60,098 nt of DNA from contig JAUIIP010000002.1 in NCBI GenBank assembly GCA_030431555.1, forward strand, positions 1-60,098, written 5' to 3'. Position numbers and translations under genes: made by a program. The notes under the pieces are model-generated. The model was given only the letters and a program-made list of their open reading frames with translations, had not been told where the DNA came from and made no database searches. The DNA comes from a bacterium (GTDB lineage Bacteria > Bdellovibrionota_C > UBA2361 > SZUA-149 > JAGRAN01). Of the stretch, positions 10,476 to 30,496 are shown piece after piece; the stretch's first letter is position 1, and each line of letters begins with the position of its first letter.

Positions 10476-10495
10476 TTCAGGAGATCGCAGGCAAG

Positions 10496-10960: not shown

Positions 10961-11002
10961 GATAAGGTTTTCTAGGTTCGCTAAGGTTGGTGAAAAAAGA
11001 AT

Positions 11003-13726: not shown

Positions 13727-13733
13727 GAGAGGT

Positions 13734-14048: not shown

Positions 14049-14074
14049 GAAAAGTGATTTGAGGATTGAAAGGG

Positions 14075-14407: not shown

Positions 14408-14428
14408 CGTTAAGCACGAGGAGAAGTC

Positions 14429-14863: not shown

Positions 14864-15663
14864 ACGACGATTCGTTTGAAGCTGACGAATTTTTTCAATC
14901 AGGCAGTAGTTCGCAAACTACTGCCAGTCCGCGCAGCAGCACAGCTGCCGACAATTCCGCGCGCCCTCAACAGGAAAATCTAAGCCGCGATTACTCGGAT
15001 GTCCGCGATGACATTGACGACGATCGACCACTCGATTCTGAAGTAATAGAAGTTCACGGAACCGCCGAGAACATTCAGAAGGTCGGATCGCCTACCGAGA
15101 ACCGCGATCGAGCACCCATCCGATATTATTTTTATCCAACATGGCGCTCGCAGCTTTTCCCGCTTCTTGGATTCGGCGTCCTTTGCATCCTTGCCGTAGT
15201 CGGCTCAAAGTACCTTACGTGGACCATCATCGCTGGCGAACTGCTTTCAATCGGCAGCACGACTTACTATTTGCACTTGCCGTTACTGGCCCTTCTGCCC
15301 GGGTTCTTTCTTGGTAAAATTCTGATCTATATCTACGACTCGAAATACATCATTGACGAGCGAGGCGTTGAAGCTCAAGTCGGACTAGTCTCTTTAAACC
15401 TTAGGCAGCCTAGACTGCGATACGAAGATATTCGCGGAGTCGAGCCGAACCAGACAATTCTTGAGAGAATTTTAGGTATCGGCAGTGTGCTGATCGGAAG
15501 CGCAATGACTCAAGATGTAGAAATTGTAATGGAAGGAGTAGCGAATCCAAGGGCGATTCAGCTTCTACTTCAAGGTGAACGTGATAAGAGGTTATCGCTG
15601 CTCAGCGGATCAGGCCGAGACAGCGAAGGCGCGAGGCAGGCGCTAGGTGTTACAGGTGATTGA
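14860..15663 (+). CDS. Membrane protein with a bacterial PH (bPH_2/YdbT-like) domain
   Basis: GTG start overlaps the upstream stop (GTGA). About three TM helices, then YIIDERGVEAQVGLVSLNLRQPRLRYEDIRGVEPNQTILERILGIGSVLIG, which is typical of bPH_2. Confidence 0.6.
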   Translation: MNDDSFEADEFFQSGSSSQTTASPRSSTAADNSARPQQENLSRDYSDVRDDIDDDRPLDSEVIEVHGTAENIQKVGSPTENRDRAPIRYYFYPTWRSQLFPLLGFGVLCILAVVGSKYLTWTIIAGELLSIGSTTYYLHLPLLALLPGFFLGKILIYIYDSKYIIDERGVEAQVGLVSLNLRQPRLRYEDIRGVEPNQTILERILGIGSVLIGSAMTQDVEIVMEGVANPRAIQLLLQGERDKRLSLLSGSGRDSEGARQALGVTGD

Positions 15664-15678
15664 TAAAGGTTTGTTGTT

Positions 15679-17706
15679 GTGGACGGTAAGAAAAAGAAGA
15701 TTTTAGCCATAGTCGCCGGAGTTGTAGTACTCGGCTTCGCAGCGAGCAGCGCTTTAGGCTCCGGCACCAAAGGTCAGGGCGAACAGCGCGCACCTGGATC
15801 AGGCGCTCCTGCCATAAACAGTCAGTTTGGTGCAAGCGGCGAATCCTTGGACACTGACGAAGTCCTGATTAGGCTTGCAAGCTACGAGCAGCGCATTCTG
15901 AACCTGGAACAGGAGGAACGTCCGAACGTAATGGTTCCTACCGCCAATGCGCTCAGTAGCTACCGCGGTGGAGAGACGGTAGCGAGTGTCGAGGACAGAA
16001 TCGCCAAGAACCAGCAGACGCGCGGTGAAGCAGTTTCTCTCGCGGAACATAAAATGATCAAAAAGCAGCTCCGCCAGCGAATCGAAGAGCTGGAGACGGC
16101 TCTGCAAACCTCGGAAGAGCTGATTGTCGAGCTAAAGAAGGTGCGACCTTCGACGGCTCAGCTGAAAGGTTTCGCTGAAGAGCGCGCAAAAAACCGAGAA
16201 ATCATCACAAAGCTGACGGAAAAGATTAGCGAACTTGAGCGCGACATAAACCAGCCTCGGGTTCACGATATCGATTCAGCCGACTCGCGCATGAAAGCAG
16301 AGCTCGCCGAGGCGCAAAAGGAAATCATGAAGCTCACCGATCAGCGAAACAGGTTGATTGACAGGATGCGCGCAATGAAGGCGGAAACGACTCAGCATCG
16401 CGAAGCCTCAGAATCCGAACAACGCACCGTTTCCCGCCTTAAGTCCGAACTTCGCCAGGTTCAGGACGAATATAAAGCGAAAGAAGATCAGTTGCGCGCT
16501 TACGAACGACAACTCAATGACTACGAACGCGTCCAGCAGGAACTGGCTTCCACCAACAGTAAGCTCGCGGAAGCACAGCGTGGCAACGAGGCTTTAAAAT
16601 CAGAAATTGCCAGACTCAGCACAGCTACCGAGAACAATGCCTACTTGCGAAAAGAGCTGGAGACAGCCCAAAACGAGTTAAAAGAGCTAAGGATAGAAAC
16701 TCGTTCGAGCAAAGCCAAGCTAAGCAGTCTGACATCGAAGACTGAACGCATCGAACCGGCGCTGGAGAAAGCTCAAGCTGAAAACACAGAGCTTCGCGAA
16801 CGAAGTGCAAAAATGAAAGCACATTTGGCTGAGCTCAAGAGCAGACAGGAGGATTTCGAGAAAACACTTGCAACCCTCCGGGAGCAAAACTCTCAACTCA
16901 CTGAGTCATCTTCAACCAGAGAGCAGGAAGTAGCGACACTTAAGCAGTGGTTAAAGTCGTTAAGAGACGAAAAGCGTTCTCTTGAAACTGACAAGCAAGA
17001 CCTTTCTTCCAAGCTGGACAAAGCAACCGAAGCTCTTCGTGCTCTCAAAGAGAAGGTTGACAAGACGGATGAGATCATTGCCTCGAAAGAAGAAGAGTTA
17101 GGCAACACGACTCGTCAACTTAGCCGCACTATTCAGGACGCCAAACAGCTTGAGCAAAAGCTTGAAGACAAAGACAAGGCGCTTGCGCGAATACCGGAGC
17201 TGGAACGAGAACTTATCGATGCCAGAAACCAGCTGCTGCTCAAAGAAACTGAGCTTGCTAGGCTGAGTGGAGCAGGTAAAGTCGACCGCGCTCTGGTCAG
17301 TCCCCCGGCACGAAAGCCGGCAGACTCCGTGGGTATTCGACCTGCAGCAGATGTTTTGATAGTCGAGATCATTCCTCGCAAGGTTAATTTGCGAGTAGGT
17401 CCCGGGCAAGAACACTCGCCGCTGATGCAGCTGAGACAGGGATCGCGACTTACCGTTGAGAACAGACAAGGCGACTGGTATCGCGTAATGACGCCCGAAG
17501 GAAAACGAGCCTACATAAGGGCGGATGTCGTCCGTCCGGTTAACTCGCCGGCTCCCGCTCAGCGCGCAGGCGCACGGGGTCAGATTGGCACTTCCAAGAT
17601 GGAGCCGTTCGGCACTGTCAACCGCTCTCGAGGCGCTGTTAAAGAAACTTCCGACGAGGAGACCCAGGCGCTGGATTATTTGCGTTCGTCCATGCAGGGC
17701 CGTTAA
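15679..17706 (+). CDS. N-terminally anchored long coiled-coil protein with a C-terminal SH3b domain
   Basis: 675 aa. TM ILAIVAGVVVLGFAA, then ~450 aa of heptad-like E/K/L/Q-rich sequence. C-terminal VNLRVGPGQEHSPLMQLRQGSRLTVENRQGDWYRVMTPEGKRAYIRADVV is SH3_3-like. Confidence 0.65.
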   Translation: MDGKKKKILAIVAGVVVLGFAASSALGSGTKGQGEQRAPGSGAPAINSQFGASGESLDTDEVLIRLASYEQRILNLEQEERPNVMVPTANALSSYRGGETVASVEDRIAKNQQTRGEAVSLAEHKMIKKQLRQRIEELETALQTSEELIVELKKVRPSTAQLKGFAEERAKNREIITKLTEKISELERDINQPRVHDIDSADSRMKAELAEAQKEIMKLTDQRNRLIDRMRAMKAETTQHREASESEQRTVSRLKSELRQVQDEYKAKEDQLRAYERQLNDYERVQQELASTNSKLAEAQRGNEALKSEIARLSTATENNAYLRKELETAQNELKELRIETRSSKAKLSSLTSKTERIEPALEKAQAENTELRERSAKMKAHLAELKSRQEDFEKTLATLREQNSQLTESSSTREQEVATLKQWLKSLRDEKRSLETDKQDLSSKLDKATEALRALKEKVDKTDEIIASKEEELGNTTRQLSRTIQDAKQLEQKLEDKDKALARIPELERELIDARNQLLLKETELARLSGAGKVDRALVSPPARKPADSVGIRPAADVLIVEIIPRKVNLRVGPGQEHSPLMQLRQGSRLTVENRQGDWYRVMTPEGKRAYIRADVVRPVNSPAPAQRAGARGQIGTSKMEPFGTVNRSRGAVKETSDEETQALDYLRSSMQGR

Positions 17707-17723
17707 AATAGCCTATAGGACAT

Positions 17724-18224
17724 ATGCTGTTTAGAGGTTTTTTAATTGCAGCGCTCTGCTGCCCAGTCATCCTATTTCAGCCTGCGTTCGCGGCAGCGGA
17801 TCCACCTATTGCCAGTTCAGTAGTTTTTCCAATCTTAAATCCGAGACTATCCAGCAAATTCGGCTCGAGGCGGCATCCGATCAAGCACACCAAGCGTCAT
17901 CACAATGGAGTTGATTTGGCGGCACCGGAAAACAGTCATGTGCGCGCAATTGCTAGCGGTAGAGTCATATTTGCCGGCGTATACTCCGGATACGGTAAGC
18001 TTGTGTCGATCGATCATGGCGGAGGCTATGTTTCGATGTATGGGCATCTCCGTGAAATCCGCATTAACATCGGAGAGAAGGTCAAAGCCGGCGATTTGAT
18101 CGGGCGCGTTGGAAGCACTGGTCTGGCAACCGGACCACACCTACACTTCGAGTGGCGAAAAAACGGGAAGCCACTGGACCCGCTCAAAGCCTTCCCCTTC
18201 TTCACCGCCGAAGCCAAAGGGTGA
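17724..18224 (+). CDS. M23/LytM-family peptidoglycan endopeptidase
   Basis: Signal peptide. Catalytic motifs HHNGVD (HxxxD) and GPHLHFE (HxH) are intact. Confidence 0.85.
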   Translation: MLFRGFLIAALCCPVILFQPAFAAADPPIASSVVFPILNPRLSSKFGSRRHPIKHTKRHHNGVDLAAPENSHVRAIASGRVIFAGVYSGYGKLVSIDHGGGYVSMYGHLREIRINIGEKVKAGDLIGRVGSTGLATGPHLHFEWRKNGKPLDPLKAFPFFTAEAKG

Positions 18225-18378
18225 CAGTTCCAACCGTCCCCTTTTATCGAGCTCTACGTCACTTTGAGGCGCACTACAGCCACGCAAACCGTGACAGTTC
18301 CAACCGTCCCCTTTAATTCAGCTCTCCCTCGCGCTGAGGTGAACTACAGTCGGAAAAGGGGACAGTTGGAACTGTCAC
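18221..18378. repeat. Composite repeat: two ~70-nt imperfect direct units, each starting with the 24-mer GTGACAGTTCCAACCGTCCCCTTT (18221-18244, 18291-18314), plus an inverted copy (18355-18378, one mismatch)
   Basis: Read directly from the sequence. The second direct copy and the inverted copy can form a ~24-bp stem with a ~40-nt loop. The element overlaps the M23 stop codon and encodes the last ~21 aa of the convergent minus-strand ORF. Confidence 0.85.
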
Positions 18379-19806
18379 CAAGAGGTAAACATTCCAGCCT
18401 TCGGATTCCGTCGCGCGGCACCACGAGCTGCTTGCGGCAAGAATGGAAGACAGTGCGGTGTCCGTCGGCCAAATAACAACTTTTGGCTGCACCCTGCGAA
18501 AGAATTCTCGCCAAGTAGCCATTCCCTGCGACGCACCGTCATGTAGCGCAAGAATTCTCGGATCGTTAATTTCTACCCGGCTATCAACGCTGACTAGCCT
18601 TGTTGGATTTCCCGACTCATCGCTGAATCTGAAAATCAAATACGCGCCGTCGACCGAGCTGTTCAGAATTGGACCCTCCAAGTCACTCTCGAGCACGAAG
18701 TCCGCAGCCGCCTTCGGCACAGCCTGCGACACAAGGGGCAGCCTAAGCAATCCATCGACCTTCAAGCAAAAAAACAGCAGCAGTAGACCTGCCGCCACTG
18801 CGGGTGGAACCTTGGCCAGGGTGCGCTCAAAGTTTGTCGCTGCACTGCTCAGGTTCGCCATCGCTCCGATGCTGCTCGACGCTTGGGGCAGCGTCCACGC
18901 GATCAATGAAGCAGCGTAAATAACAGCAAACGGCAGCAGCGTAATGGAAGCCATGCCGACGATAACAAAAAACGTCAAAGCGACCAGCTGAGCTGCACCT
19001 AAGCGTGCGCAGTGGTAGTGCAGCAACGTAAACAATACTGCTAGAAGTAAGATTAAAAAACTCACTGGATAAAGATCAAATGACGCTGGCTGAAAAACCA
19101 GCATTGAACGATGTGCCAGAGACTCTGCCAATCTCGTGAGAACCGCAGCAGGACCGTGAAGCAAAGCCGGACTAATTGTGATAGCGCCAAGGCAAACCGC
19201 AGCACAAAGCCACAATCGTGAACTCCCGCTCTGCTTATCCTTGCCGCATAGGATTGAAAACAAACCGATCAAGCCAAATAAGACACTGGGATGAAGGTTG
19301 GTCCAGAAGGCGAAAACTGCTGCTAAGGCGATGCATGAGCCCGGCGTCAAACGAGCCTGACGACGGATTTGAAATGCCAGCGCTATCGTCAGTGAAAAGC
19401 AGACCCATCCAAGAACATGCGGCGCGAGTCCAAAATGAGCGTATGACGCCATTGCAGCGACTACCGCTGTCACGGCCCCGGCAAAAACACTTTCTGACAG
19501 ACTGACCAAACACAGCATCAGCACCGAAACAAACAGCATCGCTAGTACCAGCTTAAGCACGATCATCCCGGCGGCCGCGTAGCAGTTCCACACAGACGCA
19601 GCAATTACATCAAACATCCACGAATACGGCTGCCACGACTGCCCGGACGAGAAACGGTTCCATAAGTCAGTCTGCGGAACAGCGTCGGAGGAGAGAATCT
19701 TTCGGCCAAGGGCAATATGCAGCCAAATTTCGCTGTCAGAAATCGGGCCGCAGATATAGGCAGCCGTAAAAAATGCAGTCGAAACCAATAGCAGCACGCG
19801 CTTCAT
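18313..19806 (-). CDS. Polytopic membrane protein, GT-C glycosyltransferase-like (paralog 1)
   Basis: Start moved to the ATG at 19806, which overlaps the upstream stop as ATGA with AAGGAG 8 nt upstream. At least 10 TM helices plus a ~150-aa C-terminal soluble domain. First-loop acidic motif ISDSEIWLHIALGRKIL...PQTDLW. Confidence 0.6.
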   Translation of the reverse strand: MKRVLLLVSTAFFTAAYICGPISDSEIWLHIALGRKILSSDAVPQTDLWNRFSSGQSWQPYSWMFDVIAASVWNCYAAAGMIVLKLVLAMLFVSVLMLCLVSLSESVFAGAVTAVVAAMASYAHFGLAPHVLGWVCFSLTIALAFQIRRQARLTPGSCIALAAVFAFWTNLHPSVLFGLIGLFSILCGKDKQSGSSRLWLCAAVCLGAITISPALLHGPAAVLTRLAESLAHRSMLVFQPASFDLYPVSFLILLLAVLFTLLHYHCARLGAAQLVALTFFVIVGMASITLLPFAVIYAASLIAWTLPQASSSIGAMANLSSAATNFERTLAKVPPAVAAGLLLLFFCLKVDGLLRLPLVSQAVPKAAADFVLESDLEGPILNSSVDGAYLIFRFSDESGNPTRLVSVDSRVEINDPRILALHDGASQGMATWREFFRRVQPKVVIWPTDTALSSILAASSSWCRATESEGWNVYLLVTVPTVPFSDCSSPQREGELN

Positions 19807-21371
19807 ACCGGCTTCTCCTTGGCTGCCTTGCATAGGCTGGGCTCCAGATCGCCGAATTGCGAGAGCTTATCCATCCGAACAAAAACCGACCACCCGCTGC
19901 TAACACCACCATCGAAATAAACCCTGCACCAATCTGGGTGCTCCTCCAGAATCGACGCGAGCGGCCACTTACTGCGCCAAAGCACGACACCACTTCCAAA
20001 ATCCAAGTACGCTTTCCAATTGGAGCGCCCGTAAAGCGCCTCCTGGTAGGCCTCTACCACCCGATCCGCGTTTACGTTAGTTCGGCCGTCCAGCACTACT
20101 TTATGACGGGCATTGCCGTCAGCCGAACTAAAGCGGTATATAAGGTAACCGCCGTCGCCAAACACATTCGACACTTGCTCTTCGAGTCCGTGCTCCTGCA
20201 AAAACGTCACAGCGCCTTCAGGAAACGCTCCCGGTCGCACGATCTCTTGACTGAGCTCGATTGTCTTCTCCGCGACTACTATTAGCGCCAACACCACAAT
20301 GGCGACAGAAGGCAGACGGGCGACCGCACCTCTTAGCTTCATCAGCGCCTCTCCCAGCCCGGGAAGCTGAGGTTCAACAAATGTTTCGGATGTTACGGAC
20401 CAGTAGCGAGCAATCAAGGCGCAAAGTGCAATAGCGCCGTATGGAAGAAACTTAAGCACCGCCAAGCTTCCATATGCGAGCATACAACCCGCGGCGAGCG
20501 TAGGCAGCTCTAAGGCCGAAGGTCTCTCATGCACCAGTCGCAGCAAGAGAATCAAAAAGAGAATTAAAAAAGCGGCCGGATAGTCGGCAAACGTTGCCGC
20601 ACGAAACTCGACAATGTTGCGATGCGTAAGTGGATGAGTGAACTTGCCTAGAAGAGTCAACCACTCTCCGCCCGCGTAGGGAGTCATTAATGTTCCTAGC
20701 ACTGCGGCAAGAAACACGAACAAGACGGGGCGCAGATTGAGCGGCCGGTCGCGAAAATTAGCGACCCAAACAAGCAGGTAGCAGATCCCCACAATCGCAC
20801 TCAAATGTGTATTGGCCCACGCGGCGAAGACCAGCAGGACCCCAAAGAGATAAATTGCCTTAACACCGTTACGGCGAACCAGCTCGCCGAGCATCAGCAC
20901 GAGCGCAAACAGAATCCAGGTCACTGTCTGCGGTCGAAGAACAAAATGTGCGTAGCAGGCCGAGGTGGCCACGATCCCGATAATGCAGCCAACCACCGCG
21001 TCCCTCGCAATCAGGCTGAAACTCCAGCAGAGCGACACGGCGAGCAGCACCGAAAGTGCGGCTTTGCAGGCGAGCAGACCACTCATACCGTAGGCCTGCT
21101 CCAACCACGCATAGAGCACTTCGCTTGTCCACGAATACGCCCTCCACGGCTCCCCACTGCTGTAGTAATTCCAGAGATCGACGCTCGGCAGCGCCTGGTG
21201 GTGGATTATCCAACGGCCCACAGCTATATGCCACCACAGGTCAACATCTACCAAGGACCCGCAGATATATAATCCGGCTGCCGCCGCTGCTAGAACCCAG
21301 GCTGCTGCTTTCATCAATGGCTTGTCCAAAATGCCGACATTCAAGAGAAGTAGCCCGAAGTGAATATTCAT
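19803..21371 (-). CDS. Polytopic membrane protein, GT-C glycosyltransferase-like (paralog 2)
   Basis: Same architecture as paralog 1. Motif LVDVDLWWHIAVGRWII...PSVDLWNYYSSGEPWRAYSW is parallel to DLWNRFSSGQSWQPYSW in paralog 1. Confidence 0.6.
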   Translation of the reverse strand: MNIHFGLLLLNVGILDKPLMKAAAWVLAAAAAGLYICGSLVDVDLWWHIAVGRWIIHHQALPSVDLWNYYSSGEPWRAYSWTSEVLYAWLEQAYGMSGLLACKAALSVLLAVSLCWSFSLIARDAVVGCIIGIVATSACYAHFVLRPQTVTWILFALVLMLGELVRRNGVKAIYLFGVLLVFAAWANTHLSAIVGICYLLVWVANFRDRPLNLRPVLFVFLAAVLGTLMTPYAGGEWLTLLGKFTHPLTHRNIVEFRAATFADYPAAFLILFLILLLRLVHERPSALELPTLAAGCMLAYGSLAVLKFLPYGAIALCALIARYWSVTSETFVEPQLPGLGEALMKLRGAVARLPSVAIVVLALIVVAEKTIELSQEIVRPGAFPEGAVTFLQEHGLEEQVSNVFGDGGYLIYRFSSADGNARHKVVLDGRTNVNADRVVEAYQEALYGRSNWKAYLDFGSGVVLWRSKWPLASILEEHPDWCRVYFDGGVSSGWSVFVRMDKLSQFGDLEPSLCKAAKEKPV

Positions 21372-21611: not shown

Positions 21612-21998
21612 ATGAAAGCAATTAAGAAAGTAGCCATCGGCTACAAAAAGCTTTGTCGGAAAGCATACGTTGCTACAGCAACGAATTCTACTCCGTTGCT
21701 GTTTGTGTTGGGTATCGGTCTCTTGGCAACGGGACTGGTAGGCGCTTCTGAAGCACAGCTCGCAAACGCACCAGGTTCTGGTGTTGCAGCTGGTGACGAC
21801 AGAATATATGAAATCGTTAACCGCATCTTCCTTCTGATCGAAGGTAACTTGGGTGCGTTAGTGATGATCGCCGCCGGTCTCGGAGCAATCATCGCGGCTG
21901 CATTTGGTGCATACCGTGCCGCAGTTGGACTGCTAGTTGTAGCAGTTGGTGCATTTATTCTTCGCTCACTTGTCGCTATTTTCTTCGACTGGAAATAG
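21612..21998 (+). CDS. VirB2/TrbC/TraA-like T4SS pilin precursor (paralog 1)
   Basis: 128 aa. A ~48-aa basic leader with a TM segment ends ASEA|QLAN. The mature ~80 aa form two hydrophobic helices separated by a GAYRAA loop, the same layout as VirB2/TraA propilins. GAGG lies 9 nt upstream and a terminator lies downstream. Confidence 0.55.
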   Translation: MKAIKKVAIGYKKLCRKAYVATATNSTPLLFVLGIGLLATGLVGASEAQLANAPGSGVAAGDDRIYEIVNRIFLLIEGNLGALVMIAAGLGAIIAAAFGAYRAAVGLLVVAVGAFILRSLVAIFFDWK

Positions 21999-22065
21999 TC
22001 GGCGGCGAAGAAAATGCGGGAGTCGGTGGGGACCGACTCTCTCATTTACAACGAGTGGTTCAAAA

Positions 22066-22100
22066 CCAAAAAGTGGCGTTCTTCGGAGCGCCACTTTTTT
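22066..22100 (+). terminator. Rho-independent terminator after pilin paralog 1 (A-tract/T-tract flanked, potentially bidirectional)
   Basis: AAAAAGTGGCGTTC-TTCG-GAGCGCCAC followed by TTTTTT. It is preceded by a second hairpin, GAGTCGG-TGGGGA-CCGACTC, at 22020-22039. Confidence 0.75.
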
Positions 22101-22188
22101 GTACATCCGCTAAGCTAGACAGCATCCTGCCGCCGGTATAGATTCGGTCCTTAAGTTTCCCGGAACCAGATGGAGTAATCCGCGGCTG

Positions 22189-22941
22189 ATGACTTCCTTT
22201 GTCCTGGCTACTGCCGCTGCAACCTTTACAGCATATTTCGTCAACGCTCTTACCGCCTTCGGCGGCAACATTATATTCATCCCAATAGCCGCCCTAATAC
22301 TGGAACCGAAAGAAGCCGTGGTAGTTTGCGCAGGTCTCAATATGTTCGCAAACATATTGCTGGTTAAAGTCGACAAGAAAGCTGTTCCACGCAGCTACTG
22401 GTTTATACCTGTAATTTGTTTTACCTCAGGCACAGTCCTCGGCGCGTTAACGCTGAAAACCTCCCCTGAAGACTCGTTTACCCTCTTGCTTGGTATAGTG
22501 ATTGCGACTCTCGGCGTTTGGTTTCTAATGGGGCGGCCGATGGGCAAGCGAGCGGACATACGTGACGAGATACCCGAGCGCAGCACTCCGGCAGATTGGG
22601 CTGTTTCCGCTTTCTCCGGCTTTTGCGGAGGCTCAGTCGGCATCAACGGCCCTCCCCTGGTCTGGCACTTTGGAAGGATCTTCGCAAAAGAGGCGTTCCG
22701 CAAGGTGTTAGTCCTGCTTTTTCTTCCCGCGGCATTTTTGCAGTTCGCGACATATAGCGCCGTCGGGCTGGTCGACTCTAAAACTATTCTATTTATTCTT
22801 GTTTGCCTTCCTTTTATGTGGATCGGCACTTTGTTGGGCAACCGTGCTTTTTTTAAAGTAAATCTACCTTGGTTTAATCGAATAGTCGGTATGCTGCTGA
22901 TCGCAATTAGCACCAAGTTTATTTTTGTCGGGATAGCTTGA
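22189..22941 (+). CDS. TSUP (TauE/SafE) family anion exporter-like membrane protein
   Basis: 250 aa, about 8 TM helices. N-terminus AATFTAYFVNALTAFGGNIIFIPIAALIL is typical of the family. Confidence 0.65.
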   Translation: MTSFVLATAAATFTAYFVNALTAFGGNIIFIPIAALILEPKEAVVVCAGLNMFANILLVKVDKKAVPRSYWFIPVICFTSGTVLGALTLKTSPEDSFTLLLGIVIATLGVWFLMGRPMGKRADIRDEIPERSTPADWAVSAFSGFCGGSVGINGPPLVWHFGRIFAKEAFRKVLVLLFLPAAFLQFATYSAVGLVDSKTILFILVCLPFMWIGTLLGNRAFFKVNLPWFNRIVGMLLIAISTKFIFVGIA

Positions 22942-22949
22942 ATTGAAAA

Positions 22950-24182
22950 CTAGTCCAAAAAGCGTTCTCGCTCAGCTTCGCTCGGCATTCTGCACGCTTC
23001 AAACTTGCCGAACACCTTATACCTATTGCGTGCGATAAAATTATAGACGATATCGCGAATCTGCCGTGGTACAATCCATAATACTCCAGCAAAACGCCAC
23101 AGCCCGCCCATCCAGGTAAGAATTCTTAATACAGCCGCAGAACGCTCATAGCGCTCGCCATTTTCATCCAGCAGAACGATACTGTGCATTGATTCGGCAT
23201 CTTCGCCCAGCAGTTCTTTCGCGGTTTCGCCCTGAAGCGGTGCAAGCTTAAAGACCCCGCAAAAGTCCTCACTCAGCACGAACTGCACAAAGTTGTCGCA
23301 AAGTCCGCAAACGCCATCGTAGAAGATAATAGGCTGGCCACCTTCTGTCTTACGTCCGGGAAACCAGCGTGCATCAAACGTGAAAAAGTGAACTACCATC
23401 AAAGACAGGGTCAGCTCAATAAAGTCAAAAAAAGTCGCTATCCCTAAATGGAGCAGGAGCATTCCGCCCCAGGCAGCCAAACGACCCTTTGAGATAACGC
23501 ATAGCGGAAGGAACAAAATCTCAAGGGCCAAAGTTAACCAGGTCATTCCCATCCAAAACAGCATCGGCAAATCGCGAACAATATCAGCGAACCACCACTG
23601 ATAAGTGTTAGCGGTTCTGGTGACGTAATAAATTGCGGTGCCGTCGATCCAGCTCGGACTGGCTGCCTTGAGAACCCCGCTGAGAGTGTAACTAACTGCC
23701 ATCACCAGCCAGGCACCGACGAACAGAGCACGCGGCATGAACCAATCGTGGTTTAATCTGGAAGCCTTCGCCCCGAGTACTAGCGGCTCCCCGGTCGGCA
23801 CAAGTGCCGTTGCAAGCAGCAGCCAGCCCACAAAGGAAACACCTGGATGGCTGATGAAGTTATTCCTGTTAAACAAACAGGTCCAGCAGACCCAAAGCAG
23901 CACAGCGCAGGAGCGTCTAAAAATTCCCAATGTAAACAGAACGGCCAAAACGATCGTAGCCACGATCACCGAAAGGATAACTGGGGGTGAATCGTAAGTG
24001 TCTAGCGGGTTGTAAAGGTAGCCGTACGTCCAGTTCAGCTGCGGGTTCGCAACCATTGAGACGCTGCTGAACAGGTCAACCCCGTGCCATAACATCGGCA
24101 CCATACAAAAGATTATCAGCAAGCCAAGGAAAATCCGGGCAAGTGCAAATTGATACGGTGTATAGGACTCTAAGCGCCGCAT
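22950..24182 (-). CDS. HTTM (vitamin-K-carboxylase-like/SdpB-like) membrane domain fused to a C-terminal DCC-family thiol-disulfide oxidoreductase domain
   Basis: The N-terminal ~280 aa are polytopic (FALARIFLGLLIIF..., LFNRNNFISHPGVSFVGWLLL). The C-terminus IIFYDGVCGLCDNFVQFVL...FKLAPLQGETAKELLG carries the DCC/DUF393 CxxC signature. Confidence 0.6.
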   Translation of the reverse strand: MRRLESYTPYQFALARIFLGLLIIFCMVPMLWHGVDLFSSVSMVANPQLNWTYGYLYNPLDTYDSPPVILSVIVATIVLAVLFTLGIFRRSCAVLLWVCWTCLFNRNNFISHPGVSFVGWLLLATALVPTGEPLVLGAKASRLNHDWFMPRALFVGAWLVMAVSYTLSGVLKAASPSWIDGTAIYYVTRTANTYQWWFADIVRDLPMLFWMGMTWLTLALEILFLPLCVISKGRLAAWGGMLLLHLGIATFFDFIELTLSLMVVHFFTFDARWFPGRKTEGGQPIIFYDGVCGLCDNFVQFVLSEDFCGVFKLAPLQGETAKELLGEDAESMHSIVLLDENGERYERSAAVLRILTWMGGLWRFAGVLWIVPRQIRDIVYNFIARNRYKVFGKFEACRMPSEAERERFLD

Positions 24183-24661
24183 GAGATTGAATACCTAAAG
24201 TCCGGCTTCCCGTCAGGCTTGGCATTATGAAGCAGAATCGTAAAGCCTCTTATTGGTCTATCGATCGCCAGTAATTCGGCGATGACTCCCCCGCTGCAGA
24301 AACCGTGGCTAAGCACCGGCCCGTAGGTAGCGTCAGGTATCACCGGCAGCCAGTTGATGACCATAATGTAGCCGATATAACGAAAAAAACGTCCAGTGGG
24401 CCCCTTGTGGCGCAGCGTGTTCGTGTAATCAGCTTTAGGCACGACGCGTTGCGTTCCATCTTCAAAATCGAAGACAAATTCTGCCATGTAAGGAATAGGC
24501 TCAAAAGCCTTAGAGCCGCCGAACACATCAGGAAGCGGCGAAGCCCTAGTCGCCAAAGCGAGAAATACAAGGTCATTATTGTGAATGATGTATCCGGTCG
24601 ACTGCAGCAAACCAACTGCGGTCAGCAGATAAATCAACATTAGATGAACTTTTCGCTGCAT
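24170..24661 (-). CDS. Signal-anchored hypothetical protein (163 aa) that overlaps the HTTM-DCC gene by 13 nt (same operon, possible translational coupling)
   Basis: N-terminal hydrophobic anchor LMLIYLLTAVGLL. Overlaps the downstream HTTM-DCC ORF by 13 nt. No domain recognised. Confidence 0.55.
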   Translation of the reverse strand: MQRKVHLMLIYLLTAVGLLQSTGYIIHNNDLVFLALATRASPLPDVFGGSKAFEPIPYMAEFVFDFEDGTQRVVPKADYTNTLRHKGPTGRFFRYIGYIMVINWLPVIPDATYGPVLSHGFCSGGVIAELLAIDRPIRGFTILLHNAKPDGKPDFRYSISCGA

Positions 24662-24711
24662 TATTCGACTTCTGCCTTCACCCTCAGCTTGATACTATAC
24701 TGCCTAGACAA

Positions 24712-24733
24712 GCTGAAAGCACGCGCTTTCAGC
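24712..24733. promoter_or_regulatory. Perfect 9-bp stem / 4-nt loop hairpin or palindrome in the divergent promoter region
   Basis: GCTGAAAGC-ACGC-GCTTTCAGC lies between the divergent starts at 24661 (-) and 24755 (+). Confidence 0.3.
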
Positions 24734-24754
24734 CAACGCATATTTGCCCTTGAG

Positions 24755-26122
24755 ATGAAGAATTACTCGCTTCGGATCCCGTCGAAGCTGCCATTTATTG
24801 AAGTCACCTGGCGTGCTGCTGCGGCGCTACTGATAATATATGCGGTATGCTTTTTCTTATTTGCCGTATGGGTGGTCGACGACAGCGGCTACATGAACCT
24901 CCCGCCTGAGGTAGGAGACGGTCAGGCGTATGACAACATTGCTTATAATCTATTGCACGGTAATGGTTTCGGGCACGACTGGAGTATCCCGGAGTGGAGG
25001 GAGCCCTATCTCAAAACCAACAGCGACGGTTACTATGATTGGGTACTTGAGCACGACGCTCCGTATTCGCCGACAGCGTTTCGACCGCCGCTCTACCCCG
25101 TTTTGCTGAGCGGGATATATGCTTCTTTTGGACGCAATTTTGCCGCATGGCGCTACGCTAATATCGCGATAACCGTGACTGCCGCTGTATTGAGTGTGGC
25201 GCTGGTGTATCAGTTGGTGGGCATCATCCCTGCCCTTCTCTCAGCAGCTTTTGCGTTCTTCGATACAAGTCTGCTGTTCTACATCCACCGATTTATGACC
25301 GAACCTTTAGCCGCGCTGCTGGTCGTAATCCTGCTGTTCATCCTGCTTCGCTGCGCCGCCCACCCTAAAAGAATCCACTTCATGTCGGCCGGGACAGTCT
25401 TCGGCATTATGCTCCTATTAAGAAATCTTTTCCTGCTTTGGCTTCCCTTTATTCTGTGCCTGCTGTGGATTGCGGCACGGCGCGGCAGCAAAGCCGAAGA
25501 GTCTTTAACTCCGGTGTCGGGACTATTTTTATTTTTGGCTCCCGCGCTAATATTAAGCATCCCTTGGTACGCTAGAAACTGCCTCACCACACACGAGTTC
25601 ATGCCGACCGGCACCCAGGGAGCCCGGGTTATGGCCGTCGGATACTCAGATGCGATGTTTGAAACCGGAGGGAAGTGGACCTTCAAGAAGAAAGTCGAAA
25701 TCCTTTCAACATTCTCAGCCGCGGAAGTTCCTGGAATTGAAGGCGAAGTGTTAATGGCCAAAGAGGGACGACAAAGAACTGCGGATTGGATTTCAGTTAA
25801 TACTGCGAAACTTCCGCAGCTTGCCGCCATCAAAACAACATCCCTATGGTGGTCTGACGCGCAGGGTTATCAACGCTTTTTAATTGTGCTTTCATTACTT
25901 GGCCTGGTCTTCGTTTTCGGCTCTCCTGCATTCCTTGTGTTCTCCGCCCTGCTGCTCGCTAACACAGCAGCAATCGCTGTGACATGGAATGTTCCGCACG
26001 GGAGATTCTTGATACCTATCCATCCGCTGCTTTACTGTTTAGCTTCTTGCGGATTATACATGCTCGGCTCACCACTGCGTACAATATTCAAAATGCTGCG
26101 AAGCGGCAGGGAACAGTACTAA
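24755..26122 (+). CDS. ArnT/PMT_2 (GT39-like) GT-C membrane glycosyltransferase
   Basis: Start moved to the ATG at 24755, because the 24644 start would overlap the divergent gene. Polytopic. First-loop motif VVDDSGYMN...GDGQAYDNIAYNLLHGNGFG is typical of ArnT-like enzymes. Confidence 0.6.
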   Translation: MKNYSLRIPSKLPFIEVTWRAAAALLIIYAVCFFLFAVWVVDDSGYMNLPPEVGDGQAYDNIAYNLLHGNGFGHDWSIPEWREPYLKTNSDGYYDWVLEHDAPYSPTAFRPPLYPVLLSGIYASFGRNFAAWRYANIAITVTAAVLSVALVYQLVGIIPALLSAAFAFFDTSLLFYIHRFMTEPLAALLVVILLFILLRCAAHPKRIHFMSAGTVFGIMLLLRNLFLLWLPFILCLLWIAARRGSKAEESLTPVSGLFLFLAPALILSIPWYARNCLTTHEFMPTGTQGARVMAVGYSDAMFETGGKWTFKKKVEILSTFSAAEVPGIEGEVLMAKEGRQRTADWISVNTAKLPQLAAIKTTSLWWSDAQGYQRFLIVLSLLGLVFVFGSPAFLVFSALLLANTAAIAVTWNVPHGRFLIPIHPLLYCLASCGLYMLGSPLRTIFKMLRSGREQY

Positions 26123-26123
26123 T

Positions 26124-28220
26124 ATGAACGAAGACACCGCCGGAAGAGAGTCTTACGGTCCGATTGGCTGGCTGTTTGCGCTCACAGTATTTGTTAGCGC
26201 GTTTTTACTGTTTCAAGTTCAGCCGATGATGGCGAAGTTCATACTCCCCTGGTTTGGAGGAACTCCGTCAGTTTGGAGCACTTGCTTGCTGTTTTTCCAA
26301 ACTTTTCTTTTAGCTGGCTACGCTTATGCCCATCTACTGAACAGGAATTTATCACCACAGTATCAAGCCCTCGTTCATATTGGAGTGTTGGCCCTTACTG
26401 CCTGTTTCTTGAATATAATCCCCGGCGAAGAACTCAAACCACCAGGCCCCGACGACCCGGCTTTAAGGATTCTTCAACTGCTGATGTTCACGGTAGGTCT
26501 GCCGTATTTTGTACTCGCAACTACTGGACCCTTAATTCAAGCCTGGTTCAGTATGCGCTTCCCGACGCTGTCTCCCTATCGCCTGTACTCTCTCTCCAAT
26601 ATAGGTTCGCTCCTCGCACTGCTCAGCTATCCCATTTTGTTTGAGCCGAAGCTCTCAGCTCTGGAACAAAGTTCTTTTTGGACACTGGGCTACGGGCTGT
26701 ACCTGGCTGCCGGCTGCCTCTGCGCAATAGTTGTATTTCGCCTGCCTCGCGAAACACAGTCACCCGAGTCGGCTATGGATGAGATTAGCGTTGGGCCTCC
26801 CCCACCACATTTCGGATACTGGCTGCTATGGTTTTCCCTTGCAGCATGCGGCTCAACGCTGCTGTTAGCCATAACTAATCACGTTTGCCAGGATGTCGCA
26901 GTGATTCCTTTCTTATGGATAGTTCCGCTCAGTCTTTACCTTCTGACATTTATCTTCTGCTTCGAGAGCGACTTTTGGTATCGCCGAAGAATCTATCTTC
27001 CCGCCCTGGCATTGTTGATGCTGCTAATTTGCGATTACGAAATTACCGGCCCCTCGTCACATATTCTCGTAGCACTGGGAGTCTCCTTCCTAACACTTTT
27101 TACTGCGTGCATGGTCTGCCACGGTGAGCTGGCTAGAATTAAACCTCACCCAAAATACCTAACTTTGTTCTACCTGATGATTTCTGCCGGAGGCGCCTTC
27201 GGCGGCCTGTTCGTTAGCATCATCTCGCCAATAATCTTTCCGGCATTTTTCGAACTACACTTCGGGCTGCTTAGCTGCGCCGCACTGGTATCGGTCGTGC
27301 TTTACGTCGATCCCGAATCTACTATTTCCGGCGGGAAGCCGAAAAGAGCGTGGGCGGGCTTAGGCCTTGCGTTCGCAGCGCTGACGGCTGCTCTCGGTGT
27401 TAACGCAAATCGTATGGCTAGCGGCGCACTTGAGCAGTCGCGAAATTTTTACGGCATCCTTAGAGCGGTTGAGGTGGATGCCGATGATCCCGACCTGCAC
27501 CGCATTGCCCAATACCATGGCCGCATACAGCACGGTTTCCAGTTTTTGAAGCCCGAAAAGCGGATGATGGCAACGGCGTATTACCGAAGCGGAAGCGGCG
27601 GGAACGATGCTTTTAAAATAGCGCTCCGAGACGAACCCAAGCGCGTGGGTCTGATTGGAATGGGCACTGGAACGATGGCTGTCTTCGGTCGCCCTGGAGA
27701 CACTCTGCGCTTTTACGAAATCAATCCGCAGGTAGTCGATCAAGCGAAGCGCCTGTTCACTTATTTGGATAATAGTGCAGCGAATATCGAAATCATTTTA
27801 GGAGATGCGCGCTTGTCGCTTGAGAGAGAAGCCAGCCAAAATTACGATTTGTTCGTTATCGATGCATTTAGCGGCGACGCAATCCCCGCGCACCTGCTGA
27901 CCCAAGAGGCGTTTGCGATTTATCTGCGCCATCTTTCGGACGACGGTCTCATCGCAATCCACATTACCAATCACCACCTTGATCTGCGACCGGTAATCAG
28001 CCAAGCCGCTGAGCTGTATGGCCTGGAAACGGCGGTGAAGTATCTGGACAAAGGCGAAGGCGGACTAGAGCCGGAAACCAATTGGATGCTGCTAAGCCGC
28101 GAGGGATCGAAATTGGAGATAAGCACCTCGGACAATTCCCGCCTCGATCGCAATCAAGACTACGGTGAAATCCGGCTCTGGACCGACAATTTTAGTAATT
28201 TATTTCAAATTTTGAAGTAA
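26124..28220 (+). CDS. Membrane-fused spermidine-synthase-like (class I SAM/dcSAM-dependent transferase) protein
   Basis: About 400 aa of polytopic N-terminus. The C-terminal fold shows GLIGMGTGT, FYEINPQVV and DLFVIDAFSGDAIPAHLLTQEAF. The start is 1 nt after the upstream stop. Confidence 0.7.
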   Translation: MNEDTAGRESYGPIGWLFALTVFVSAFLLFQVQPMMAKFILPWFGGTPSVWSTCLLFFQTFLLAGYAYAHLLNRNLSPQYQALVHIGVLALTACFLNIIPGEELKPPGPDDPALRILQLLMFTVGLPYFVLATTGPLIQAWFSMRFPTLSPYRLYSLSNIGSLLALLSYPILFEPKLSALEQSSFWTLGYGLYLAAGCLCAIVVFRLPRETQSPESAMDEISVGPPPPHFGYWLLWFSLAACGSTLLLAITNHVCQDVAVIPFLWIVPLSLYLLTFIFCFESDFWYRRRIYLPALALLMLLICDYEITGPSSHILVALGVSFLTLFTACMVCHGELARIKPHPKYLTLFYLMISAGGAFGGLFVSIISPIIFPAFFELHFGLLSCAALVSVVLYVDPESTISGGKPKRAWAGLGLAFAALTAALGVNANRMASGALEQSRNFYGILRAVEVDADDPDLHRIAQYHGRIQHGFQFLKPEKRMMATAYYRSGSGGNDAFKIALRDEPKRVGLIGMGTGTMAVFGRPGDTLRFYEINPQVVDQAKRLFTYLDNSAANIEIILGDARLSLEREASQNYDLFVIDAFSGDAIPAHLLTQEAFAIYLRHLSDDGLIAIHITNHHLDLRPVISQAAELYGLETAVKYLDKGEGGLEPETNWMLLSREGSKLEISTSDNSRLDRNQDYGEIRLWTDNFSNLFQILK

Positions 28221-28327
28221 TTAGCTGTTTATCCGCCTTCGACTGGCGTAAGTACCAGCAAACGGCTATAATCCGCATCAGAAAAATGCGGGTTTACACG
28301 CAGCTTGAGAAATGGAGCTTGAATACA

Positions 28328-28726
28328 ATGAACACCTTTTCCCCTTTAGCTCGATTCACATTGTCCAAAGCGCGATACGCTGCTGCATGCCTTGAGGCGT
28401 ATCGACCGACTATTGCATCAGCTGCGCTGATCGCCTTTGGAATCATTTTGTTAGCTGCAGCTGGAGCAGACTTTTCACTTGCTCAATTATCCAATACTCC
28501 GGGCTCCGGAGTAGCTGCCGGCGACGACCGGATTTACGATATGGGCAGCCGGATGTTCGAGTTAATCGAAGGCAACTTAGGCTCGCTGGTCATGATCGTG
28601 GCAGGTTTGCTGGCGATTATAGCGGCCGCGCTCGGAAGCTATCGGGCAGCGACAAGCTTGCTGGTCGTTGCAGTCGGTGCATTTATCCTGCGTTCGCTAG
28701 TCGTAATTTTCTTTGATTTTAAATAG
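28328..28726 (+). CDS. VirB2/TrbC/TraA-like T4SS pilin precursor (paralog 2)
   Basis: Start moved to the ATG at 28328 (GGAG 10 nt upstream). The leader ends FSLA|QLSN. By my hand alignment, about 63 of 80 residues of the mature part match paralog 1, including PGSGVAAGDDRIY and LLVVAVGAFILRSLV. Confidence 0.55.
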   Translation: MNTFSPLARFTLSKARYAAACLEAYRPTIASAALIAFGIILLAAAGADFSLAQLSNTPGSGVAAGDDRIYDMGSRMFELIEGNLGSLVMIVAGLLAIIAAALGSYRAATSLLVVAVGAFILRSLVVIFFDFK

Positions 28727-28741: not shown

Positions 28742-29710
28742 TTAGAACGAATAATTCGTTAGCACTTCGCGTATTTCGCTGGCGGTGTCACCTGGACGAC
28801 CTTCGAAAGGACTGCCGGTGATCTTCTCGCAGGCTTCTATGTAGCGCAGCGCTGTATCAACACGAAACTCATCACTAAGCACCGGCGGCTCTCCGTCACC
28901 CATGTAGTCGTATTTCTCCATGAGGTGACGTCGCACAAACTCTTTGTCCAGCATATGTGGATCTTCACCTGCGGAAAAGCGCTCTTCATAGGTGTCAGCA
29001 ATCCAGTAGCGAGATGAATCCTGAGTATGAATCTCATCAGCGAGAACAATGAATCGCTCACCGTTCTCATTTACGCTCGTGCCAAACTCGTACTTCGTAT
29101 CGACCAGAATCAAACCGCGCTCAGCCGCTTTCTTTGTACCAAACTCGAACAGCTTCAGCGCGGCGTCCCTGACCTGGTTCCAAAGTTGGGGATCTACTAA
29201 ATCGGATTGAAGAATTGCCTCTTCCGAAATAGGCATATCATGCTCACCCTGCTCAGCTTTGGTCGAAGGAGTGAGCAGAGGTGAATCGAATCTTTGAGAT
29301 TTCTTAAGCCCCTCGGGCAGCGAAATTCCTGAAACAGCGTTGCCTTTTTGATAATCCCGCCAAGCACTTCCGGTCAGATACCCGCGCACCACTACTTCGA
29401 TTGGAATAATGTCGACCTGTCTTGCGATAAATACGTTCGGATGAGGAACATCAATTATGTGGTTCTGGATAATATGCTTAGTTTCTTCGAACCAGTGCGC
29501 AGTCATTGCGTTTAGCAACTGCCCCTTGAACGGAATAGTGGTCAGAATTTTATCAAAAGCGCTAAGGCGATCGCTCGTGATGAGAACACGCTTCGCACCC
29601 ACCACATAGCTATCCCTCACCTTGCCGGAAATCTTGTCTCCAAGATCGGGAATGTCGATTTCAGAAAGGGTATGAGCGAGCTGCTGCGTGACTATTTCTC
29701 TACTAAGCAT
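28742..29710 (-). CDS. purC: Phosphoribosylaminoimidazole-succinocarboxamide (SAICAR) synthase, long form
   Basis: GKVRDSY, ITSDRLSAFD, VVVRGYLTGS and LILVDTKYEFG motifs. Confidence 0.9.
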   Translation of the reverse strand: MLSREIVTQQLAHTLSEIDIPDLGDKISGKVRDSYVVGAKRVLITSDRLSAFDKILTTIPFKGQLLNAMTAHWFEETKHIIQNHIIDVPHPNVFIARQVDIIPIEVVVRGYLTGSAWRDYQKGNAVSGISLPEGLKKSQRFDSPLLTPSTKAEQGEHDMPISEEAILQSDLVDPQLWNQVRDAALKLFEFGTKKAAERGLILVDTKYEFGTSVNENGERFIVLADEIHTQDSSRYWIADTYEERFSAGEDPHMLDKEFVRRHLMEKYDYMGDGEPPVLSDEFRVDTALRYIEACEKITGSPFEGRPGDTASEIREVLTNYSF

Positions 29711-29785
29711 ATCGTCGATCTCCGAAGCAAAGGCCGGTTATTACCTCATGCTTGCTCTGTTTTCAAGACCAGACTAAGGGAGTAC

Positions 29786-29815
29786 AAAAAAACCCCGGAG
29801 CTGCGGACTCCGGGG
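29786..29815 (-). terminator. Rho-independent terminator of the ECF sigma gene
   Basis: On the minus strand: CCCCGGAG-TCCGCAG-CTCCGGGG followed by TTTTTTT. Confidence 0.8.
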
Positions 29816-29854
29816 TTAAGTATGTGAACCAATATTGCGAGGAATGTGAACTTT

Positions 29855-30496
29855 TTAGGCAGCTTGCTTCATTACCGAGGGACCGACAGAGATAATCTTC
29901 TCGTCGCTTCTGTAGTCCTCATAGAAGCGGCTCAGGCGCTTTCGCAGCATCAACCTTGAGCGGTGCAAGCGCGACTTCACGGCCGGAATGCTCAAATTAA
30001 GCAGCTCACCAACTTCTTTGTTGGAAAGACCGTCAATATCACGCAGCACAAATACAGCTCGGTATTCTTCCGGCAGCCGGCGAATCGCATCTTCGATTGT
30101 CCCCCGCATTTCATTGCAGAGAGCGCGCGAATCACACTTGTCCCTGAAACTAGCAGTCTGCGACAAAGCCTGATTCTCGAGCTGCGGAAGCATTTCATCG
30201 ATCGAAATCGCTTGGTGCTTTTTGCGCTTGCGCAGCTTCATAAACGCTGCATTAACGGTTATTCTGTATAACCAGCTTGAAAACTTTGACTTACCTTCAA
30301 AACTTTCGATTTTTCGGTAAACTGTCACGAAGACATCCTGAAGAACTTCCTCCGCATCCAACTCGTTGCGAGTCAAGCGCAACGCCAAGTTGTAAGCCTT
30401 GGTCTCGTACCTCGAAATAAGCTCTTCAAAACTCTCCTCACAGCCACCCGTAAATCGCTCTATAAGAACTGCATCCGTAACCGTCTCTGAGCGCAT
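29855..30496 (-). CDS. ECF-type RNA polymerase sigma-70 family factor
   Basis: Region 2 (LQDVFVTVYRKIESFEGKSKFSSWLYRITVNAA) and region 4 (VFVLRDIDGLSNKEVGELLNLSIPAVKSRLHRSR). AGGAGG SD. No adjacent anti-sigma gene. Confidence 0.85.
   Translation of the reverse strand: MRSETVTDAVLIERFTGGCEESFEELISRYETKAYNLALRLTRNELDAEEVLQDVFVTVYRKIESFEGKSKFSSWLYRITVNAAFMKLRKRKKHQAISIDEMLPQLENQALSQTASFRDKCDSRALCNEMRGTIEDAIRRLPEEYRAVFVLRDIDGLSNKEVGELLNLSIPAVKSRLHRSRLMLRKRLSRFYEDYRSDEKIISVGPSVMKQAA

Follow-up and report, generated by a model that had tools for sequence, protein, structure and literature searches.

VirB2 homologs are proteins of 100-140 amino acids (aa) in which a long signal peptide precedes a mature part of 60-80 aa with two transmembrane (TM) helices. 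Mature VirB2 begins with QSAG, and its Arg91 faces the lumen and is needed for pilus formation. Once processed, pilins of this family polymerize into an extracellular pilus, as a rule in company with phospholipid. The F-pilin TraA has a leader of ~51 aa and a mature helical hairpin of ~70 aa. Paralog expansion has precedent in the 8-15 virB2 copies of Anaplasma, and the Bartonella Trw system carries tandem trwL copies. The subject of the present analysis is a pair of genes, ORF A and ORF B (ORF, open reading frame), located in a 60,098-nucleotide stretch of contig JAUIIP010000002.1 (assembly GCA_030431555.1, GTDB lineage Bdellovibrionota_C), referred to below as the window. An initial annotation of the window described both as VirB2/TraA-like pilins that bracket an envelope-modification cluster remote from a type IV secretion system (T4SS). 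The results presented here indicate that ORF A and ORF B are probably paralogous propilins of a distant VirB2/TrbC-like family, serving the divergent F-like T4SS encoded at 5766-18224. The family itself is most likely a divergent VirB2-like pilin family of a chromosomally fixed F-like T4SS in uncultured Bdellovibrionota.

ORF A, ORF B and Their Family

The propilin layout that had been read from the ORFs starting at 21612 and 28328 was borne out in both (Table 1). Leaders of 48 aa in ORF A and 52 aa in ORF B end in S-E-A and S-L-A, respectively, each followed by Gln and a predicted mature part of 80 aa; leader and mature parts were divided after these tripeptides in all comparisons. A long signal peptide, a signal peptidase I-type site (cleavage being predicted) and a two-helix mature part of ~60-80 aa are thus present in each protein. 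For ORF B, the start at 28328 was favored over an ATG at 28286 because it is preceded by GGAG, no such element precedes 28286, and the ortholog at L015 starts at the equivalent position (L-numbers denote loci carrying genes of the family). AlphaFold2 (AF2) models for ORF A showed a helical leader plus a hairpin, with predicted local distance difference test (pLDDT) scores of 81 and 87. The mature-only model (pLDDT 86.9) comprised a helix at 8-49 with a kink at 30, a loop at 50-52 and a second helix at 53-77, which is the helical hairpin that the initial annotation had expected from structure prediction. An NCBIfam scan of ORF A and ORF B gave no match.

The two proteins are clear paralogs (64% identity over 118 aa by BLASTP, E 2e-38) and are the only family copies within the window. 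Their mature parts are identical at 63 of 80 positions (79%), in line with the four-fifths estimated by hand, and the two nucleotide strings quoted from the conserved stretch occur once each, at 21771-21800 and 28499-28528. Codons differ at 45 of the 63 identical residues, and third positions differ in 59 of 80 codons. Synonymous divergence between the mature parts is saturated (pS 0.92) at a nonsynonymous divergence (dN) of 0.16, which confirms an old duplication under purifying selection. The description of the leaders as unrelated was overstated: they are identical at 15 of 54 positions (28%) and have in common a Y-x3-C-x2-A-Y motif plus a TM segment.

Homologs of ORF A numbered 337 in a 90%-clustered database, all of them unnamed and none with a Pfam domain. 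An exhaustive profile search of 1.84 billion proteins yielded, on clustering at 50% identity, 673 clusters with E ≤ 1e-3, 469 of them with E ≤ 1e-10, and the best 150 matches of that search were core members only, with no bridge to other families. All matches in the reference-genome collection came from uncultured metagenome-assembled genomes (MAGs) labeled Bdellovibrionota, Bdellovibrionales, Oligoflexia, “Deltaproteobacteria” or similar. All of these clusters are annotated as “hypothetical” and have no Pfam domain; a pilin assignment would allow this large family to be named and its role to be put to the test.

The layout is uniform across the family (168 members were used for layout statistics, 161 for the loop residue and 156 for the F-I-L-R motif). 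A basic N-terminus, a TM segment, an x-x-A↓Q site and a variable acidic segment of ~20-25 residues precede an almost invariant core, E-G-x-[FL]-G-A-L-[IV]-M ... G-x-Y-[RK] ... L-V-V-A-V-G-A-F-I-L-R-S-L-V-x-x-F-F, and the C-terminus reads F-F-[DN]. Median lengths are 52 aa for the leader and 88 aa for the mature part. The x-x-A↓Q site directly follows the leader TM segment in 74% of members, and position -3 is A, S or V in 109 of 124 of those. The Arg of F-I-L-R lies in the middle of the second hydrophobic helix in 153/156 members (residue 118 of ORF A and 122 of ORF B). This layout agrees with the published description of VirB2 homologs.

Profile comparisons pointed to a remote, sub-threshold similarity to VirB2/TrbC. 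When 133 diverse family members were scanned against Pfam, TrbC/VirB2 (PF04956) was matched below threshold by 41 and the next most frequent Pfam family by 8; the PF04956 matches run end to end (model positions 5-91 of 98). TraA (PF05513) was not among the Pfam families listed for family members. Comparison by hhalign with a VirB2 profile built from authentic PF04956 proteins gave P 0.0077 and a probability of 5% for a family alignment of 55 sequences. For an alignment of 133 sequences (A3), the corresponding values were P 1.3e-4 and 54% over 74 collinear columns in the same register. In that register, the A↓Q of the family falls on A47↓Q48 of VirB2, E-G-x-F-G on L-G-P-F-G, and the loop Arg on Arg91, the family residue being basic (R/K) in 157/161 members.

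Linkage to a Divergent F-like T4SS

The T4SS operon of the window was recognized from Pfam and NCBIfam matches. Apart from domain matches, its NCBIfam scores lie far under the equivalog cutoffs (TraC-F-type, 184 versus a cutoff of 567 bits), which marks it as a very divergent T4SS. The initial annotation was correct in placing no pilin gene in the traA slot; a 278-aa Ala/Glu-rich protein that is not a pilin stands there, before the TraL-like gene. Scanning the window ORFs, the operon included, with the family and VirB2 profiles gave no further pilin candidate, and a narrow Agrobacterium-type VirB2 hidden Markov model matched none of the window ORFs, ORF A and ORF B included. A TraF/TrbF-type cyclase peptidase was not seen among the operon genes scanned, and the scan of window genes recognized no relaxase. 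ORF A and ORF B begin 3.4 and 10.1 kb beyond the end of the operon at 18224, as first described.

Linkage was counted over 77 reference-genome loci from 64 MAGs by searching the window proteins against the fetched loci, a family gene being taken as linked when the same T4SS genes lay on the same strand within 10 kb. By this count, that operon lies ahead of the family gene at 42 of the 77 loci, representing 42 of the 64 MAGs, and the linked gene usually starts 160-550 bp after the M23 peptidase gene, the last of the operon. The co-occurrence of family and T4SS that had been put forward as a check is seen at these loci, and the other 35 are considered below; pairs of family genes were found in many genomes. 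The family is accordingly encoded with a T4SS in over half of the loci counted, and no rival pilin candidate exists in the window.

Gene order at the linked loci indicates where the pilin-like genes belong. At L001, the TraC gene and the SH3-M23 genes are followed by the family gene, purC(-) and sigma(-). L006 has SH3-M23, copy 1, copy 2, purC(-), sigma(-) and PNP(-), and L013 has copy 1, purC(-) and copy 2. In the window, M23 on one side and purC, sigma and PNP on the other still form the outer frame, and additional genes lie within it. This shared frame, together with the orders at L001, L006 and L013, argues for an ancestral layout of T4SS, pilin (or pilin pair) and purC. The remoteness from the T4SS noted initially is thus real as a distance within the window but is a local, derived state, the result of insertions into that layout; relatives have the pilin-like gene directly after the T4SS.

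In several distantly related MAGs, the T4SS (678-18224 in the window; L001, L006, L013, L063 and L064) lies in a conserved housekeeping neighborhood that includes purC, the ECF sigma factor, PNP_UDP, GIDA, 2-oxoacid dehydrogenase E2, lipoyl synthase and TamB. This setting and the failure to recognize a relaxase suggest that the system is chromosomal and passed on vertically, and is not a mobile conjugative element. At the operon end (15679-18224), a 675-aa coiled-coil/SH3 protein and the M23 peptidase are both conserved across linked loci, and the two may stand in for a VirB1-type lytic transglycosylase as the wall-opening enzyme. A literature search on the T4SS of this lineage or on the MAG names returned nothing relevant.

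Evolution of the Two Copies and the Pilin Assignment

ORF A is 98.4% identical to its ortholog at L015 and 95.3% to that at L094, leader included, and neighboring genes at these loci are 42-94% identical. The genes beside the L015 ortholog are 49-94% identical to those of the window, so that L015 represents a related species and not the species of the window. ORF B, by contrast, is 78% identical to its L015 ortholog overall, with 56% in the leader and 92.5% in the mature part, and is absent from L094. Near-identity of ORF A across species, set against the drift and loss of ORF B, suggests that ORF A is probably the major, tightly constrained subunit and ORF B an accessory one.

The pair is older than the species that carry it at three other loci. 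ORF B bears in its loop region the copy-2 signature A-L-G-S-Y, which it has in common with L018, L020 and L022. In these three, copy 1 reads A-A-F-G-Q-Y-R-A-A-L-G...A-I/V-G-S-F and copy 2 A-A-L-G-S-Y-S-x-A...A-V-G-A-F, and leaders are 46-48% identical between orthologs and 31-33% between paralogs. The copy-specific signatures and the greater closeness of orthologous leaders date the duplication to before the L018, L020 and L022 species. The 25 residues before the core behave in the opposite way: at the same three loci, paralogs within a genome are identical at 23-25 of 25 positions and orthologs at 19-22, with a paralog pS of 0.6-0.7. For ORF A and ORF B, the count is 18/25, and pS is saturated. 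In its protein sequence, the mature N-terminal segment thus shows concerted evolution that does not stem from recent gene conversion. Conversion of recent date as the source of the within-genome similarity was rejected for the window pair, given its pS of 0.92, and is unlikely at L018, L020 and L022 given theirs; older conversion events are possible, since ortholog pS is similar to paralog pS.

In the proposed mechanism, the precursor would enter the inner membrane by means of its long leader, with its basic N-terminus and TM segment, and signal peptidase I would cut after S-x-A to leave a Gln N-terminus. The 80-aa mature helix-loop-helix, with its basic loop residue, would then be extracted by the T4SS, which would polymerize it into a pilus or a channel filament. 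ORF A would be the strongly constrained and probably major subunit and ORF B a second one, with a mature part that follows that of ORF A and a leader that drifts. The assignment draws on the layout, the T4SS context, the lack of any other pilin candidate and the in-register remote similarity taken together.

Several results weigh against this assignment. Neither ORF A nor ORF B matched PF04956 even at E ≤ 10, and no family member reaches its gathering threshold of 27.9 bits, the best scoring 15-20 bits (best E 1.2e-4); ORF A and ORF B are not formal members of PF04956. The invariant F-I-L-R Arg of helix 2 has no counterpart in the VirB2 alignment. Despite the F-like machinery, hhalign of family alignment A1 against a single F TraA showed no similarity (P 0.32). 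Of the initial VirB2/TraA-like label, the VirB2/TrbC half has in-register similarity below threshold on its side, and the TraA half has none. A tblastn search of 72,556 plasmids with the best TrbC-scoring member found no pilin match. The family profile run against PDB sequences found no pilin and chance TM matches only, and Foldseek searches of PDB with the full-length and mature-only models returned nothing below E = 2.5 and no pilin, although both nulls were judged uninformative because the target is a bare 80-residue helical hairpin. At 35 of the 77 loci, no T4SS gene lies within 10 kb; 15 of these have less than 8 kb of upstream flank, and 8 belong to MAGs that also hold a linked copy. Finally, the ORF A leader is 97.9% conserved between species, like the mature part, and keeps its Y-x3-C, which is not usually seen in a signal peptide destined for removal and would be compatible with an uncleaved protein of three TM segments.

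Such a protein is the alternative that survives best, although it is improbable. The leader would be retained, giving T4SS inner-membrane components with three TM segments and a cytoplasmic amphipathic N-terminal helix that are not pilins but might help assembly, form a stator-like or channel-lining subunit, or be proteins of the entry-exclusion or immunity type. Besides the constrained ORF A leader and the unreached TrbC/VirB2 threshold, this would account for the [YF]xxxC motif in 67 of 168 leaders, the conserved G/L/G positions within the leader TM segment and the modeling of the leader as a confident helix (pLDDT 84-89). What tells against a retained leader is that the most conserved feature of its end is a canonical -3/-1 signal peptidase site followed by Gln, aligned to the processing site of VirB2, and that ORF B lets its leader drift while holding its mature part, as expected if the mature part is the working product. 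Moreover, the operon already has a gene in the TraL/VirB3 position and is otherwise without a pilin, and arrays of up to seven paralogs suit surface subunits better than stoichiometric machine parts.

If the two proteins are pilins, two further proposals are possible, though doubtful. The paralogs may be obligate partners in a heteropolymer or two routes to one surface structure. This would fit a mature N-terminal segment that is nearly the same within a genome and differs between species despite near-saturated synonymous divergence. Each copy, in addition, has retained a leader and a loop signature of its own (AFG.YR versus ALGSY[RS]). The T4SS, in turn, might be a lineage-defining organelle of prey or host contact and not a conjugation apparatus, given its fixation beside housekeeping genes throughout a wide clade of uncultured Bdellovibrionota, the absence of a detected relaxase in the window and the paralog arrays.

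Some genomes depart from the single gene or pair, carrying as many as seven arrayed copies, tandem duplicates that have fused, or duplicates that are identical. Between 3 and 7 paralogs are arrayed at L004/L046 (CAZDWZ010000019), L087, L077 and L091 amid other small unannotated genes, in each case with no T4SS gene inside 10 kb; that at L004 is near a bPH_2 protein and an RND efflux pair. P0123, P0130 and P0159 (275-308 aa) each contain two matched stretches and are apparently fused tandem duplicates of the pilin-like unit. At L076 (2079-3261), two copies are 100% identical in DNA over the compared region (pS 0), reflecting a very recent duplication or an assembly repeat. The second copy at L006 (P0058, 6327-6830) carries, after the predicted cleavage site and ahead of the conserved core, a Gly-rich insert of ~35 residues that includes two Cys (…GGGVCTDDFCIGGGIGSGGHGGGFRQGGGGF…) and would form a surface-exposed extension. 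Two orphan copies have other neighbors. P0096 at L003 (7237-10414) directly follows an 844-aa TadE-domain protein; upstream of it, at 6-10 kb on the same strand, are homologs of the window coupling protein and of the 739-aa protein. P0002 at L010/L016 (4601-6164; MAG HKST-UBA19), 71% identical to ORF A, adjoins an HvfC/MbnB(DUF692)-type pair resembling a peptide-modification cassette.

Inserted Genes and Comparison with Known Systems

The features of the window are collected in Table 1. Two blocks appear to have entered the T4SS-pilin-pilin-purC interval in the sub-clade of the window: the two minus-strand membrane proteins mem506 and mem522 before ORF A, and a cluster running from the TauE gene to the gene for the fused major facilitator superfamily/spermidine synthase (MFS/SpdSyn) protein between the copies. 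The gene content given initially was right for the TauE/TSUP, DCC1-like and MFS/spermidine synthase genes, but Pfam did not detect HTTM, and the GT39/PMT_2 match is weak and below cutoff. An Rfam scan of the whole window found no family. In the 17.6-29 kb region, promoter-like sites were fewer than in shuffled sequences and terminator-like sites were at chance level.

Table 1. Positions of the T4SS genes, ORF A, ORF B and neighboring features in the window
Feature	Position	Strand	Remarks
TraD/TraG-like coupling protein	678-3053	-	Divergently transcribed
739-aa protein	3070-5289	-	Function not assigned; beside coupling protein
Divergent F-like T4SS operon	5766-18224	+	278-aa protein, TraL-like (135 aa), TraE-position protein (250 aa), TraK-like, TraB/TrbI, TraV-like, DotD-like, TraC/VirB4, small lipoproteins, bPH_2, SH3-domain protein, M23 peptidase
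mem506/mem522	18313-21371	-	Two paralogous polytopic membrane proteins (506, 522 aa); between T4SS end and ORF A
ORF A	21612-21998	+	128-aa propilin-like protein; GAGG Shine-Dalgarno 9 nt before ATG
ORF A leader	21612-21755	+	Residues 1-48
ORF A predicted mature part	21756-21995	+	Starts with Gln
TauE/SafE (TSUP) permease	22189-22941	+	Pfam; variable slot
410-aa membrane protein	22950-24182	-	Pfam; C-terminal DCC1-like thiol-disulfide oxidoreductase domain
163-aa protein	24170-24661	-	No function assigned; overlaps DCC1-like gene
Adjacent gene pair	24644-28220	+	Second start codon 1 nt after upstream stop
492-aa GT-C/PMT_2-like membrane protein	within 24644-28220	+	Weak match below cutoff
698-aa fused MFS/spermidine-synthase-family protein	within 24644-28220	+	NCBIfam
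ORF B	28328-28726	+	132-aa paralog; GGAG 10 nt before ATG
ORF B leader	28328-28483	+	Residues 1-52
ORF B predicted mature part	28484-28723	+	Follows S-L-A; starts with Gln
purC (SAICAR synthetase) and ECF (extracytoplasmic function) sigma factor	28742-30496	-	Synteny at L001, L006, L011, L013, L063, L064, L094

Genes of a pilin-modification system would be expected to co-occur with it across genomes. The DCC1-like/163-aa/GT-C/MFS-SpdSyn cluster was found beside a family gene only in the window and in three lineages related to it, L011/L015 (MAG HKST-UBA19), L012 and L094, and the DCC1-like and 163-aa genes are conserved as a pair at L011, L012 and L094. No such cluster is present at ~40 other T4SS-linked loci; in these, the pilin-like gene directly follows the T4SS. 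L094 keeps the cluster without ORF B, and its 698-aa gene ends 9 nt before purC. The gene right after ORF A varies from TauE in the window (22189-22941) to a GDSL-like gene at L011/L012 (3461-4576 at L011) and a CitMHS transporter at L094 (4741-6573), a sign that genes have been replaced at this spot more than once. The 698-aa protein is one of a family of ~8000 members; beyond three close relatives, the nearest are ~47-52% identical, and the named ones are mostly planctomycetal. Its homolog in a cultured planctomycete (L095) has no other cluster genes, T4SS or pilin-family member nearby. Homologs of mem506/mem522, each of which matches the other's locus, lie beside a family gene at L011/L015, L012, L094, L031 and L088. 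L031 and L088 fall outside the sub-clade that bears the rest of the cluster. Pfam and NCBIfam gave no match for mem506/mem522, and PDB sequence searches gave none for mem522 or the GT-C-like protein. On this evidence, the intervening cluster looks like cargo inserted at a permissive site between T4SS and purC, and the two blocks like lineage-specific insertions and not conserved partners of the pilins.

The initial annotation had seen here a pilin-maturation or decoration island, an idea that was dropped as unsupported. Even a version restricted to the sub-clade, in which GT-C-like enzymes would glycosylate, or the MFS-SpdSyn and DCC proteins modify, the periplasmic pilin N-terminus, is quite unlikely. 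It has on its side that GT-C enzymes work at the periplasmic face, the expected location of the mature pilin N-terminus, that the cluster sits between or beside the pilin-like genes wherever it was found, and, as the sole hint in favor, that the mem506/mem522 family recurs near a family gene at L031 and L088. The distribution described above runs the other way: the cluster is missing from most linked loci, outlives ORF B at L094, has had its first gene replaced in each relative, and includes a 698-aa family centered on Planctomycetota, in which no pilin-family member was seen. Its genes, moreover, lie on both strands and so would not be co-transcribed with the pilins, which in the cluster-bearing genomes have no distinctive acceptor motif when compared with those of L006 and L013.

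As an alternative to pilins, the initial annotation had offered secreted membrane-active peptides. Extended to bacteriocin-, toxin- or holin-like products that would work with the adjacent M23 peptidoglycan hydrolase, this reading is very improbable. The proteins are small, hydrophobic, multi-copy in some genomes and usually encoded right after the M23 gene, and 1 to 5 members gave isolated weak Pfam matches to models of holins and SieB. However, neither a double-glycine leader nor a dedicated ABC exporter nor an immunity gene recurred in the neighborhoods examined, where T4SS genes are the sole recurrent partners, and M23 and SH3 belong to the conserved gene set of the T4SS operon. TrbC/VirB2 is the only specific recurrent profile signal, and the extreme sequence conservation is unlike that of fast-evolving toxins.

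As propilins, ORF A and ORF B would supply the missing pilus subunit of a very divergent F-like T4SS that is apparently vertically inherited next to purC in many uncultured Bdellovibrionota-type genomes. It would follow that an F-like machine can pair with a VirB2/TrbC-like, and not a TraA-like, subunit whose gene lies at the distal end of the locus. As a co-evolving pair, the paralogs would offer a natural system for asking whether T4SS pili use two subunits.

Of the known pilin families, VirB2/TrbC (PF04956; A. tumefaciens VirB2, RP4 TrbC, pKM101 TraM and R388 TrwL) resembles the present family in its size of ~120-140 aa, its long TM-bearing leader, its A-x-A-type site followed by Gln, its ~80-aa helix-loop-helix mature part with a basic loop residue and its encoding with a T4SS, and the sub-threshold Pfam matches are collinear over the full length. 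The family differs in that its partner machinery is F-like (TraC, TraB, TraK and TraV) and not VirB-like, that its gene comes last in the locus, after the M23 peptidase, and not near virB3/virB4, and that it has the invariant helix-2 Arg and the F-F-[DN] C-terminus. With F-pilin TraA (PF05513, MPF-F), it has in common the service of an F-type machinery with TraL/E/K/B/V/C, a long leader and a mature part in the form of a helical hairpin, but detectable sequence similarity is lacking, and whereas traA comes first, before traL, that slot here holds the 278-aa protein and the pilin-like genes lie beyond the 3' end. The virB2 paralogs of Rickettsiales and the tandem trwL copies of Bartonella provide a parallel for copy number, as they too comprise several diverged copies per genome, some of them apart from the T4SS; in Anaplasma, as here, the hydrophobic helices are conserved and most variation falls near the mature N-terminus and the C-terminus. 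Those copies, however, are bona fide PF04956 members from host-associated Alphaproteobacteria, whereas the present family comes from uncultured, environmental Bdellovibrionota-type MAGs. In these, the mature N-terminal segment is near-identical between paralogs within a genome, the opposite of antigenic diversification.

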